The notes: generated by a model not told the origin, from the letters alone. A stretch of DNA of 64,000 bases from Verrucomicrobiia bacterium (GCA_035945675.1 DASZAB010000034.1:30255-94254), one strand, 5' to 3'; numbered from the stretch's first letter, positions 41,958 to 46,300 are shown. Made by a program: numbers and translations.

Positions 41958-42022
41958 ACTCAATCTTGCGCGAACAGATATTCCAGATCGTTGGCATGAG
42001 GCAGCGGGCGAATCCTTTCAAG
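41958..42022 (-). pseudogene. Displaced, decayed copy of the SNF2 helicase 3' end (left direct repeat)
   Basis: Reads ..ANDLEYLFAQD* versus the functional ..ANDLEYLFAED*. A 1-nt deletion upstream breaks the frame. Confidence 0.75.
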
Positions 42023-42275
42023 CCAAGGTTTTGGCGCTGGCAAACATTAGCTTTTCCACGGGCAAATCTTCGTCGAGGCTTATCCAGTGAATACCCGAAC
42101 CTTTGCCAATCAAACGCCATCTGTTCCGCTGGTTCGCTATTGCCCGTTCCAGACGGGGATAACGACTCACGTTTACCGAAATCCTGCTGCCGTTGATAAA
42201 GCGCGCGATGAGTTTGTCTCCGACAAAATCCACGCCCGCCAGCCGCAAATCATCAAAGATGCCCGAAGCATTCAC
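42018..42275 (-). CDS. DUF2442 domain protein
   Basis: GTG start. YPRLERAIANQRNRWRLIGKGSGIHWISLDEDLPVEKL matches the DUF2442 pattern. Confidence 0.7.
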   Translation of the reverse strand: MNASGIFDDLRLAGVDFVGDKLIARFINGSRISVNVSRYPRLERAIANQRNRWRLIGKGSGIHWISLDEDLPVEKLMFASAKTLA

Positions 42276-42492
42276 ACGTATTCGTAAAGTGGAACTGAAC
42301 TGGTGGGTTGCGCGCGTTTCAAAAGTGATTCCAATTGGCGGATGGTTTCCGTCCGCAGTAACACACCACCACCCACGTTACAAACATCCGCCGGCACATG
42401 ATCAATCCCTACCACCCGCCGTTTTGCCGCACGATGTGTGTGATGACGCGCCGTTTATAATCGCCTGGACAATTTTTGATGCTGCAGTTCAT
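42272..42492 (-). pseudogene. Decayed YgiT-type zinc-finger (MqsA-like) gene
   Basis: MNCSIKNCPGDYKRRVITHIVRQNGGW then stop. The -1 frame continues GIDHVPADVCNVGGGVLLRTETIRQLESLLKRAQ. One frameshift, and the second CxxC is lost (CNVG). Confidence 0.5.
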
Positions 42493-42496
42493 GCCT

Positions 42497-42814
42497 TCAT
42501 GCCGCCACTTTCACCTGCGGCTTGATGCCCAAATCCTCACAAATCGCCCGGATAATCGTAAACAAACTGCGCGTGGTAGGATTGCCGCGGCGGCTCAACA
42601 TACGATGCAGGGCCTTTTCACCAAAACCGGTCTGACGGGACAACTCTTTGAATGAGATATTGGCATGAACCAGGTCACGTAAAATCGAAAGCCCCTCTTC
42701 GGTTTCGCCTTCGAGCAATGAATTGACCGCCTCGGCATAAAGCGCCCGCGCAAACTTCGGATCGCGTTTGATCCGAGCCAGGACGGTTTCTTTATATTCT
42801 CGCGTTAGTGCCAT
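42497..42814 (-). CDS. higA: HigA-family antitoxin (addiction module antidote protein, HTH)
   Basis: MALTREYKETVLARIKRDPKFARALYAEAV..ELSRQTGFGEKALHRMLSRRGNPT. ATG 1 nt after the toxin stop. Confidence 0.85.
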   Translation of the reverse strand: MALTREYKETVLARIKRDPKFARALYAEAVNSLLEGETEEGLSILRDLVHANISFKELSRQTGFGEKALHRMLSRRGNPTTRSLFTIIRAICEDLGIKPQVKVAA

Positions 42815-42815
42815 G

Positions 42816-43142
42816 TTAATTCTTTGACTGCTTGTATCGCTTCCAGCGTTCAATGGCAGCTGCGATGTCGGCCGATTGTCGTCGTTTGCTGCCGCCGCCC
42901 AATAAAATGATAATCGTTCTGCCCTCTCGTCCAAAATAAACCCGGTAACCGGGACCAAAATCCATTTTCAATTCAAACGCGCCTTCACCAACTGCTTTGA
43001 CTGAGCTAAAATTACCCGTTTCAAGTCGGCGAACATATTTGTCAATGCGTGCGGCAGTTACGGCATCGAGCGAATTGAACCAATCTGCGAAAGGTGATTT
43101 TCCATCTTCGATGAATTCTCTAACCTCAAATGTGATTTCCAT
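42816..43142 (-). CDS. higB: RelE/ParE-superfamily toxin (HigB-like addiction module killer protein)
   Basis: EFIEDGKSPFADWFNSLD..AARIDKYVRRLETGNFSSVKAVGEGAFELKMDFGPGYRVYF. Toxin-first gene order. Confidence 0.85.
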   Translation of the reverse strand: MEITFEVREFIEDGKSPFADWFNSLDAVTAARIDKYVRRLETGNFSSVKAVGEGAFELKMDFGPGYRVYFGREGRTIIILLGGGSKRRQSADIAAAIERWKRYKQSKN

Positions 43143-43312
43143 AATTTCTTTCCATGCATTCTTTTCATTTTGAGCCTTTCATTAGATTTCTTCCTGGATT
43201 TGCCGGTCACAAGTCTGGCGTAATTGCCAGTGTGATATAGTACCATTTAAGTTACCGTTGTCAAGCGACATTTCATAATCGCTAAACAATGCGTCCTAAA
43301 AGTGCTTCTGAC

Positions 43313-46300
43313 TCAATCTTCCGCGAACAGATATTCCAGATCGTTGGCGGTGAGGCTGCGGGCGAAGCCTTCCTCGCCGAGCACGTCCGCTATCGTCTGC
43401 GCCTTGTTCTGTTGCAGTTCCCAGATTTTTTCCTCGACCGTGCCGGGCGCAATCAGCCGGTAGGCGTTCACCGTCTGGGTCTGGCCGATGCGATGCGAGC
43501 GGTCAATGGCTTGCGCCTCGACGGCCGGGTTCCACCACGGATCATAAAGCACCACGTAGCTGGCGTTGGTCAGGTTCAAACCCGTGCCCGCCGCGCGCAG
43601 GCTCAGCAAAAACACACCTGCGGACGTGTCGCTCTGGAACGCGCTGACGACCTGCTGCCGGTCCTTGGTCTGGCCGGTGAGAATGTGGGTTTTGATTTGA
43701 CGCGCCTGGCATTCCTTTTCCAGCAGATGAAGCATTTGGACGAATTGGCTGAACACCAAAACCTTCTCGCCTTCCGAAACCAGCGGGTCGAGCAATTCAA
43801 ACAGCGTCTCGGTCTTGCCGGACGCGGTGTCGCTGCCCACGAGCGCCGGGTGACAGCAGACCTGGCGCAACCGGGTGAGCGCGGCCAGCACGTGCATCTT
43901 GCTCTTGTTGAGGCCTTGTTCCTGGACGGCCTGCATGATCTGGTCGCGGCTGCGGCGCAATTCGGCGAGGTAAAGTTTCCGTTGCTCGTCACCGAGCGGG
44001 CAATCACGCCGTTCCTCGATGCGGTCGGGCAGGTCCTTGGCGACATGTTTTTTCAAGCGGCGCAGCAACAAGGGCCGCAATTTTGCCGAAAGCCGCCGGC
44101 GCGCAATGCGCTGGGCCGACTCGGTTTTCTCGCCGCGCGCCTCCGCCGTGGGCACGGCTTCCTCGCCGGCGCGCAGACGCGGTTCGTAGGTCTCGATAAA
44201 CTGTTCCTGGTTGCCGAGGTAACCGGGCTGGATGAAATCCACGATGCTCCACAAATCCAGCAACCGGTTTTCCAACGGTGTGCCCGTGAGCGCAAGACGG
44301 TACTCGGACTTGAGCTGCTTGACCGATTGGGTGACCTGGGCGCCGGGGTTTTTGATGAACTGCGCCTCGTCCAGAATCGCCGCGCGAAACGCAAATTTCT
44401 GCAGCTCCTCCAGATCGCGGCGGAGCAGGGCGTAATTGGTTACGATCAAATCGTGCTGGGGAATTTGTTTGCGCAGGTTGTGCCGCGCGGCGCCGCTTTC
44501 GAGCACCAGCACCTTGAGGTTGGGCGTGAACCGGTTTGCCTCGCGCCGCCAGTTGTGCAGCACGGACGCCGGACAGATGACGAGCGATGGCTTGGGATTT
44601 TTCGTATTGCGTTCCTTGAGCCACCCCAACCAGGCGAGCGTTTGCAGCGTTTTGCCCAGCCCCATGTCGTCTGCCAGAATCCCGCCCAGCTTGATCCTCG
44701 TCAGGTGCGCCAGGAAATCGAAACCGTCCTTTTGATACGGACGCATGTCCGCCTTCAAACCCTTGGGCAAATCCACCGACGGCACGCCCTTGAAATCGCG
44801 GATATGCCCGCGCAGCGCCTTGGCTTCGGGCGAATCGGTAAAGCGGGCGAAACCGTCCTCGTCCAGATGCGCGACGTGTTCCAGGCCGACCTTTTGGGGG
44901 ACGGCGATCAGGCCGTCCACACCCATGTCGGCCATGGCTTCGTGCGCGCTTTGCACGGCGCCGGTGTCGAGTTCCACCCAGCCGGAATTCGGCAGCTTGA
45001 CGAAGCGGCCCGTCGCGCTGGCGAGGCGTTCGAGGTCCGCCTTGCTGAGCTTGAGTCCTTCCGCTTCCCACTCGGCGGAGACGGCCAGCCAGTCAATGCC
45101 GCTGCCTTTGACGACGAGCCGTGGCTTGAGCTGGCGCGGCTGCAGGAACAAGCGGTGAAACGCCGGGTTGCCGAGAAACTCGGCTTCCTTCGGCCGTTCC
45201 GCCCAGGCGCCGGCGAGCGAACCGAGGAAATTCTCATTTGCGTCACCAATCCACAAGCCGGGTTCGGAGGTGAACCAGTCCAGTTTGCGGAGCCATTGGG
45301 CGGCCGGTTCCAGGCGCGGGTCGTCGAGGATTTCCGGTTTGTCGGCGGGCCGCTTTTTGACTTCGTTCGCCACCCATTCGTGGCCGTTCCAGAACCAGAC
45401 ACTCTGGTCGCGCTGGCTTCGGGCCAGCAGCCGCAGGCGCACGGTGTCGTCCAGCAGCTCGAAGACAAATTGCGGCGCGGCCTTGTGCGTGACGCAAAGC
45501 TGTTCCCAGTTCACCCCATGGTTCGACTGGGTCTTGCGCAGGTGCAGCAGGAGCCGATGGCTGAGTTTGCGCACCGGCACGGACGGTTTGCCGGCCAGAT
45601 ATTTCAGCACCGCCGGCGGCGGGGCATTGCGCAACAGATAAAACGTGCTGTTGACCAGCGCCAGCGGCGACTGGCGGTTGAAGAACTTTACCTCCGTAAT
45701 GGAATGGTTTTTGCCATCAGGCGAAACCACGTAATGGGTGAATGAAAGTTCCTTGTCGCCGTTTTCGAGATGCGGCGACAGCACGGCGACCTGCCCGTGA
45801 AATTGCAGCGGTTTGCCCCCGCATTCCAGGCGCGTCGTGTGGCCCCAGCGCGCCAGCCATTGGAGCAATTCGGCGTCGGACAAAATCAGCGTGTCCGTGT
45901 CGCGCAGGGCGGGATTGCGCTGCGTGTCGGAAATCCACTGGATGAATTCCCAGTCGGCCGGCGGAAACAACTCCTGCTCGTGGGTGGCCCGGACGACGAG
46001 ATCGATCATTTCGCGAAGCGTACGCGCCTTTTCGCCGGTGCGGGGGCGCGACAACAGAAATTGCACGGCCAGGCGATGGCGCGACGGTTCTTCCTCGTCC
46101 GGTTGCGGGCGGCAGACGACGCGCAGGACGGCGCGGGGCGTGTCGAGCAAGGGCAGGGCGGGCGGTGACAGCCAGTTCTCCAGTTCCTGTACGAGCTTTT
46201 GTTCCTGTTCCGCCTCCTCGGCCCGGGCAAAACGGTCGAGGCTGGCGTGCGGCTGCAGTTCGGGCGGCATGGACCGCTTGGCCCGCAGGAACAGGAAGGC

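Follow-up and report, generated by a model that had tools for sequence, protein, structure and literature searches.

A toxin-antitoxin islet between two copies of a helicase gene end in a Verrucomicrobiia bacterium

The duplicated helicase terminus and the genes between its copies

We analyzed a stretch of 64,000 nucleotides (nt) from a Verrucomicrobiia bacterium (GCA_035945675.1, DASZAB010000034.1:30255-94254). We call this whole stretch the window, and positions are counted from its first letter. Our subject is a small islet of toxin-antitoxin genes at the 3' end of a gene for an SNF2-family helicase. The end of the helicase gene is present twice, as the working terminus and as a displaced copy on the far side of the islet (Table 1), and we refer to successive terminus copies, here and in other genomes, as T0, T1 and T2. 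An earlier reading of the window from the sequence alone (the sequence-only reading) had reported this duplication, and a direct-repeat search and an alignment both recovered it. The search found 38 nt that are 97% identical (41958-41995 vs. 43311-43348) and, after a 1-nt indel, another 31 nt that are 81% identical (41997-42027 vs. 43351-43381). In a global alignment of 41958-42027 with 43311-43381, 62 of 71 columns are identical, and fainter similarity continues to about 42038/43392 (67/83). The proximal copy ends with ..ANDLEYLFAED and the stop codon. The distal copy has lost its reading frame by a 1-nt deletion; past the frameshift, it reads ..ANDLEYLFAQD and then a stop codon.

The repeat is specific to the ends of helicase genes. 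Its 26-nt core occurs exactly twice in the window, where shuffled sequences lead us to expect 0.00 occurrences, even if 3 mismatches are allowed. For comparison, we fetched 181 loci (designated by L numbers), nearly all of them from metagenome-assembled genomes (MAGs) or metagenome contigs. Orthologs of the helicase have 61-95% identity in Verrucomicrobiota MAGs and are usually divergent from asd, and the tail of the gene is strongly conserved across lineages at the nucleotide level. A degenerate 21-nt pattern for the core matches 36 of the 181 loci, and in the loci that we analyzed, each match falls at the end of a helicase gene or in a terminus copy shortly after it, which is not how a dispersed family would behave. 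The shuffle expectation and the positions of the matches rule out both chance and a dispersed repeat. A dispersed repeat family and a duplicated terminus without intervening genes were the two observations that the sequence-only reading had raised against itself, and we found neither.

We also considered other roles for the terminus copies. A structured RNA or a terminator is ruled out: the copies do not fold significantly better than shuffled sequences (z-scores of -1.25 to +0.45), Rfam has no match in 41700-43600, and no terminator-like site was found at the copies. Nor is the distal copy a translated extension of DUF2442 or HigA, as the frames disagree between genomes.

The insert between the copies is 1.28 kb and holds four small genes, all on the helicase (minus) strand. 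The G+C content of the islet is 41-54%, vs. 59-67% for the helicase gene. Profile matches, and an ortholog in L168 and L169, confirm all four gene calls of the sequence-only reading, including the intact higB-higA pair and the frameshift and the missing second CxxC of the YgiT-type gene. For HigB, we found more than 2,000 homologs. HigA scores below both of the specific antitoxin models (21.6 bits for TIGR02684, with a cut-off of 53.7, and 18.1 bits for PF21716, with a cut-off of 27) and just above the cut-off for the generic model HTH_26. In five relatives, higA is at the same position with 82-91% identity.

The intact YgiT ortholog in L168 and L169 has 73 amino acids (aa) and matches TIGR03831 (YgiT_finger) with E = 4e-9; the copy from L169 scores 36.6 bits. 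Even with its frame repaired, the window's gene scores 15.4 bits, below the cut-off of 20.2, and it lacks one of the two cysteine pairs. Because it has CxxG and is below the cut-off for a model that the intact ortholog in L169 matches, we consider it to be a pseudogene of the YgiT family. In L169, a DUF4258 gene (E = 2.6e-11) is directly upstream of the YgiT gene, which implies that the original module was DUF4258-YgiT-DUF2442 and that its first (toxin) gene was lost in the window. At the other end of the module, the distal terminus copy starts right next to the last codons and the stop codon of the DUF2442 gene, or overlaps them.

Between the helicase stop codon and higB, our scan found no terminator-like site. 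The region upstream of higBA has a homologous counterpart in L027, L096, L098, L145, L176 and L179, and in relatives, a perfect inverted repeat (GTATC-TTAAAT-GATAC) lies between the promoter hexamers. This is probably the operator for HigA, which would then repress its own promoter. In its toxin-first order, small genes, helix-turn-helix (HTH) or zinc-finger antitoxins, and inverted-repeat promoter, the islet resembles HI1419/HI1420-type HigBA modules and DUF4258-YgiT (MqsA-like) modules. Relative to those modules, there is nothing unusual about its proteins, except that the second module is decayed in the window.

HigBA has also decayed in some relatives. In L027, higB is frameshifted (10186-10507). 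In L145 (672-999 and ~1315), the start of higB is disrupted and the stop codon of higA has changed from TGA to TGG, and the higA open reading frame (ORF) now runs into what may be a remnant of a terminus copy.

Table 1. Features of the helicase islet, its neighbor, and a second islet at asd (positions in the window).
Feature	Position	Strand	Description and evidence
SNF2-family helicase gene	43313-46618	-	1101 aa; target gene, 3' end duplicated; Pfam SNF2-rel_dom E = 4e-68, Helicase_C E = 6e-22
Proximal terminus copy (T0)	43311-43392	-	Working last ~80 nt of the helicase gene; stop codon 43313-43315
higBA upstream region	43143-43312	-	Sigma-70-like promoter TTGACA-16-TACTAT at 43264-43237
higB-type toxin gene	42816-43142	-	Intact, 108 aa; RelE/ParE superfamily, HI1419 type; TIGR02683 103 bits (cut-off 62.85); Pfam Gp49 E = 2e-5
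higA-type HTH antitoxin gene	42497-42814	-	Intact, 105 aa; starts 1 nt past the higB stop; HTH_26 23.3 bits (cut-off 22)
YgiT/MqsA-type zinc-finger antitoxin pseudogene	42272-42492	-	1-nt deletion near 42418; second CxxC changed to CxxG
DUF2442 gene	42018-42275	-	Intact, 85 aa; Pfam PF10387 E = 4.7e-15, 56 bits (cut-off 23.9)
Distal terminus copy	41958-42038	-	Displaced, non-coding helicase 3' end; 1-nt deletion
Wzz-like gene	40611-41927	+	Ancestral convergent neighbor of the helicase gene; Pfam Wzz E = 1e-7; stop ~30 nt from the distal copy
asd-islet repeats	47730-47885 vs. 50240-50392		118/164 columns identical, ~80% where ungapped
asd-islet cargo: PEP-CTERM protein gene	48151-48879	+	
asd-islet cargo: AraC-family regulator gene	49035-50075	-	

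The same gene end in related genomes

If the islet was inserted, then some relatives might retain the empty site, and the sequence-only reading had predicted that this would be a helicase gene convergent with a Wzz-like gene and with a single terminus. Two loci (L099 and L020) have this arrangement: the helicase gene has one terminus copy and is convergent with a Wzz-like gene and PadR, and its stop codon is 13-50 nt from the convergent Wzz-like gene. These empty sites imply that the islet is a genuine insertion at the helicase terminus and that the end of the helicase gene was preserved, as had been proposed. The distal copy marks the ancestral position of the helicase end. In L098, L176 and L179, the Wzz-like gene follows HigBA or T2. 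Six contigs from the same organism, with identical HigB (L001-L006, including a strain that is 97.5% identical), have the same arrangement as the window and are uninformative about its history.

A recent integration finds no support in the relatives. HigBA is immediately 3' of the helicase gene in many Verrucomicrobiota lineages (L027, L096, L098, L100, L145, L174 and L176-L181), and this holds for every lineage that we sampled with HigB as little as 76% identical. At third codon positions, the identity of higA follows that of the helicase gene (68 vs. 72% between the window and L027, 64 vs. 66% for L145, and 50 vs. 56% for L096). This implies that HigBA diverged together with its host, and we see no sign of recent movement.

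Nor are the four genes a single element. Orthologs of the DUF2442 gene (67-85% identity) are downstream of the same helicase gene in L167-L174 and L176. The homologs most similar to the window's DUF2442 (85, 71 and 67% identity) come after this helicase without exception, and a terminus copy follows each of them immediately, with an identical junction. This junction, the DUF2442 stop codon followed by (A)AGG.TTCGCCCGC, is common to the window, L168, L172, L174, L175 and L176. Another junction, the HigA stop codon followed by A(A)TCC..CGCAGCC, is common to L176, L027 and L096. L176 has both cassettes, each with its own terminus copy, in the order helicase-T0, YgiT-DUF2442, T1, HigBA, T2, Wzz. 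L179 also has three terminus copies. Since the cassettes are separate in L176, the islet is a composite of HigBA and YgiT-DUF2442, and each of these cassettes would at first have had a displaced terminus of its own. We had considered that YgiT-DUF2442 was a late insertion specific to the window, but the DUF2442 orthologs at the same locus in four other lineages rule this out. Close relatives include HigBA-only, DUF2442-only and empty states. In the window, the cassettes are in the reverse of the order in L176, and the spacer between higA and the YgiT pseudogene is just 5 nt, with no terminus copy between them. From these comparisons, the window's state (HigBA, the decayed YgiT-DUF2442 cassette, and one displaced copy) is a derived rearrangement.

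L176 has a counterpart from the same sample. A block with DUF2442, T1, HigBA, T2 and Wzz is 99.85% identical over 4.7 kb between L175 (5504-10227) and L176 (5502-10228), and the sequences upstream are wholly different. The break is inside the YgiT gene, and in L175, there is no helicase gene within 5 kb. Either the array was detached from the helicase gene by a strain-level rearrangement, or the difference is due to an assembly chimera.

The sequence-only reading had likened the copies to att sites, and neither the lengths of the duplications nor their cargoes fit this well. At the helicase end, the duplications are about 46, 50, 53, 57, 62-78 or 827 nt long. Duplications of ~46-80 nt are in at least 10 loci, and the left boundaries, for which the sample sizes are small, are at about -44 to -78, plus -827 in L174. 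Besides toxin-antitoxin genes, the cargoes include a GYF-domain gene in L100 (where the decayed old terminus is still joined to the HigBA promoter), a block with genes for an extracytoplasmic function (ECF) sigma factor and a LamG protein in L007 (with a deleted remnant of the block in L014), and, in L179, a 115-nt palindromic repeat element that is non-coding. L179 has this element twice, once past the helicase terminus and once past the copy after HigA, and it looks as though terminus and element were copied together.

In L174, an ungapped and open 3' fragment of the helicase gene (7081-7907, 276 codons) is directly upstream of higB and 3.2 kb downstream of the full helicase gene. Gene calling picked it up as a gene, and it has SNF2 and Helicase_C domains. 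The fragment is 90.9% identical to the resident helicase gene, with 17, 10 and 52 differences at the first, second and third codon positions, and just 13 of 277 residues differ. The bias towards third positions implies that both copies evolved as working genes (under purifying selection), so the fragment and the resident 3' end came from different genomes. This pattern of substitutions supports import from a related donor.

The short copies seem too well preserved for their age. Between these lineages, synonymous sites are 56-72% identical, and each distal copy is 85-91% identical to the working terminus of its own genome, which is usually its closest match. For example, the distal copy in the window has 4 mismatches to its own terminus and at least 8 to the others, and the one in L096 has 4 vs. 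at least 6. In each genome that we examined, all copies have the same codon at the variable position of ..YLF[A/S]E.., which is serine in L176, L172 and L100 and alanine elsewhere. Unconstrained copies of this age should have decayed, yet they co-vary within genomes, which indicates concerted evolution. Similarly, a multi-nucleotide allele, ..CCGCCAACGAT.. (encoding TAND instead of TATD), is shared by the window's helicase gene, the window's distal copy, the distal copy of L168 and the helicase gene of L178, which implies exchange between working and vestigial copies. We considered whether this allele was converted specifically from a vestigial copy into the working gene, and dropped the idea: exchange is supported, but the allele in the helicase gene of L178 makes the direction ambiguous.

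A second islet at asd, and other repeats in the window

Another islet of the same design is at the neighboring asd gene, where about 150 nt are duplicated, 2.5 kb apart. This repeat runs from the end of asd through a palindromic spacer into the end of the convergent next gene. In L027, L007 and L014, the site is empty, with asd directly convergent with the next gene. For both islets, simple tandem duplication is ruled out because the junction segment alone is repeated and the cargo is single.

Palindromes that resemble repetitive extragenic palindromes (REP) or miniature inverted-repeat transposable elements (MITE), with arms such as GTAGCAGCCGAC..GTCCGCTGCTAC, are found just past the stop codons of convergent genes. 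They are at 47765-47841 and 50275-50350 in the window, downstream of asd in L009, and at 4661-4775 and 5702-5820 in L179.

Downstream of the asd islet, a gene for a BNR/Sortilin-like protein of 424 aa has lost 1 nt, compared with L027, at about 14 codons from its end, and a stop codon comes early as a result. If we compare 50385-50430 to 47848-47880, the terminal codons (..SGFYRLATQ and stop) are intact in the vestigial copy by asd and are out of frame at the gene itself. The gene may really be truncated, or the early stop may be a sequencing error.

The window has other repeats. Direct repeats of 145 nt and 29 nt lie about 1.33-1.37 kb apart (35273-35417 vs. 36642-36786, and others). They are probably accounted for by two apparently paralogous genes for membrane proteins, in tandem at 34405-35634 and 35747-37006, which seem to result from an ordinary gene duplication; in other loci, relatives of these genes have MacB_PCD and FtsX domains. 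At 62016-62083, there are two tandem G+C-rich units of 34 nt (TTCGATTCGGCTCGCGGGGACGCTCGCCCC..) that are 94% identical.

Origin of the copies and relation to known elements

As far as can be read from the compared sequences, the loci show that insertions at the gene end came with long target duplications of variable length, that cassettes were stacked and, among relatives, lost and reordered, that the insertions persisted by vertical descent, and that the copies were homogenized. To account for these, we propose that the 3' end of the helicase gene holds an old array of cassettes that arose by one or more insertions with long target duplication, with no integrase visible, and that this array has been inherited vertically and reshuffled. 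We would give this explanation a probability of roughly 0.5. Each time, DNA would have entered the helicase gene a few dozen bases before its stop codon and brought a complete terminus with it, and the resident terminus would have been pushed downstream as a non-coding copy. The 827-nt case, the right boundary at the stop codon, and the ordinariness of some of the cargo are together best fit by acquisition that is anchored by homology: DNA from a related lineage might cross over homologously inside the helicase gene, while an illegitimate join a little before the stop codon of the recipient would attach its other side. The product would be a chimeric but intact helicase gene, followed by the donor's downstream genes and then by the displaced terminus. 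Recombination would soon remove longer repeats, and short duplications might therefore be the ones that survive. Recombination between terminus copies would also prune and reshuffle the array, and gene conversion would keep the copies alike. Finally, the toxin-antitoxin pair may penalize cells that delete the islet via the repeats, and such selection would explain why HigBA is the most persistent cargo.

Several points weigh against this explanation. The mechanism by which the duplications originate was deduced rather than observed. For the short duplications, the left ends are concentrated at about -46 to -78, which could reflect a preferred site instead of the survival of stable short repeats. 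The order of cassettes in the window, with no copy between them, requires an extra rearrangement that we could not reconstruct uniquely, and the direction of gene conversion is ambiguous. The toxicity of HigB, its neutralization by HigA and the stabilization of the islet are predictions. Also, since the comparison sequences are nearly all derived from metagenomes, some of the arrangements could be assembly chimeras, as might be the case for L175 and L176.

Some of the same observations would be expected if circles carrying a cassette were released by recombination between terminus copies and re-entered, by a single RecA-dependent crossover, any genome with the same helicase gene. This "pseudo-integron" would make repeats and shuffle the order of cassettes. 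Every cassette in L176 and L179 is followed by a terminus copy, the order is opposite in the window and L176, and the HigBA-only, DUF2442-only and empty states are as predicted by recombination between copies; the co-variation of copies within genomes and the high nucleotide conservation of the helicase tail are also consistent with it. However, it leaves the origin of the first terminus copy unexplained, and re-entry by a single crossover should have left a copy between HigA and YgiT in the window, where there is none in the 5-nt spacer. RecA acts poorly on 50-80 bp of homology at 85-90% identity, the divergence of HigBA looks vertical, and the circles were not observed, so we think that this explanation is unlikely.

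Alternatively, the copies could be the attL and attR of a site-specific element, with identity from the crossover point to the stop codon, and with a tyrosine or serine recombinase that is elsewhere in the genome or was lost. Consistent with this, the repeats terminate at the stop codon or a few nt away, the left ends cluster at -46 to -64 in several independent events, and several cargoes share one site, with the same geometry as for islands in the 3' ends of tRNA genes and protein-coding genes. But the search for a recombinase came up empty. As the sequence-only reading had stated, there is none inside the islet: its genes have no recombinase or transposase domain, although the rest of the 64-kb window and of the genome was not scanned for integrases. 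We found no recombinase in the scanned cargo genes of L007, L027, L100, L169 and L009 (using Pfam). Downstream of the helicase gene in relatives (126 ORFs within 3.5 kb), no integrase is among the 25 most frequent of 121 Pfam families, where a single integrase could be hidden. The duplications vary in length, and the one at asd spans ~150 nt over the ends of both convergent genes. Given as well that HigBA diverged with its host, without a recent move, and that one cargo is a 115-nt non-coding element, site-specific integration seems very unlikely. The least likely explanation, in our view, is that the target was duplicated in one step within a single genome, by a replication template switch or by repair of widely staggered breaks. 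Variable duplications, the lack of mobility genes, and convergent gene ends with palindromic elements (helicase/Wzz and asd/next gene) would fit a replication-based rearrangement, but the 827-nt fragment of L174 differs from the resident gene mainly at third positions, so the event did not copy it from within its own genome, and the copies at the asd islet are only ~80% identical even though close relatives keep the empty site.

How does the proposed array compare to known elements? Integrase-mediated islands are found in the 3' ends of tRNA, tmRNA and protein-coding genes, and some of their derivatives have no recombinase, such as the pseudo-SCC (staphylococcal cassette chromosome) elements at rlmH. 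Our locus shares with them the insertion at a 3' end with a replacement terminus, the flanking direct repeats, the tandem stacking of cargoes, and the existence of remnants without a recombinase. It differs in that we found no recombinase in any of the variants that we examined, in its repeats of 46-827 nt, and in that no recent movement of HigBA is seen. Chromosomal integrons have arrays of cassettes that often include toxin-antitoxin cassettes. As in those arrays, we see ordered small cassettes on the same strand, each followed by a repeat that is prone to recombination, in an order that differs between relatives, and the toxin-antitoxin genes may stabilize the array. In contrast to integrons, we saw no IntI and no attC-like folded site, and the repeat is a copy of the coding end of a host gene. 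We excluded the islet from both classes because we checked for their defining features and did not find them: no recombinase was seen in the islet, in the scanned cargo genes of relatives or among the 25 most frequent Pfam families downstream of the helicase gene, and the extent of the repeat is not constant, as a fixed crossover point would dictate.

The closest precedent is the insertion with long target duplication that was described for restriction-modification complexes (Nobusato et al. 2000, Gene 259:99; Furuta, Abe & Kobayashi 2010, PMC2853133; reviewed by Mruk & Kobayashi 2013, PMC3874152). In the published cases, the repeats are ~46-420 bp, there are no mobility genes, and a stop codon is often included in the repeats, which leaves the target gene intact; it was proposed that the complexes are inserted, amplified via their repeats and released in a cycle, with the mechanism unknown (PMC2853133, PMC3874152). 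Furuta et al. 2010 relied on repeats of over 30 bp, a single-copy empty site, an insert of under 20 kb without a mobility gene, variable repeat length, and the presence of restriction and modification genes. The helicase islet has all of the architectural features (repeats of 71-81 nt, empty sites in L099 and L020, an insert of 1.28 kb, and repeat lengths of 46-827 nt, or ~150 nt at asd), but it carries toxin-antitoxin genes instead of restriction and modification genes, so it does not belong to the restriction-modification set. It also differs from the published cases in that, in relatives, the cargo can be ordinary genes or a non-coding element; in that several events have accumulated at a single gene end, where there are as many as three terminus copies; and in that the insertion has persisted, with concerted evolution, across lineages that are near synonymous saturation, while the published cases are mostly polymorphisms within species. 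A first search of the literature on toxin-antitoxin islets with direct repeats found nothing specific. Overall, our evidence partly supports the interpretation in the sequence-only reading, and we interpret the islet as an ancient and composite insertion with long target duplication that lacks an integrase, and not as a recent att-site element.

For annotation, this suggests that comparative evidence is required before a short "pseudo-terminus" beside a small islet is called an att site. The locus also illustrates clearly the long-term concerted evolution between the functional end of a gene and its discarded copies, and this exchange can feed changes into the working gene. More broadly, the description of insertion with long target duplication in 2000 raised the still-open question of how addiction modules (such as restriction-modification and toxin-antitoxin systems) move without a mobility gene. 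Here, one gene end provides a natural series (empty sites, single insertions, three-copy arrays, swapped orders, duplications from 46 to 827 nt, coding and non-coding cargoes, and an apparent import from a donor), so the mechanisms can be compared on real data. A bolder idea, which we regard as distinctly unlikely, is that the terminus copies act as portable homology tags: toxin-antitoxin cassettes would be released, exchanged between related species, and re-inserted by RecA without any integrase, and the toxin-antitoxin genes would police the array. If that were true, it would give a handle on the mechanism of insertion with long target duplication, and if it were also common at other gene ends, with asd as a second case, it would be a general and so far unrecognized route for the traffic of gene cassettes.

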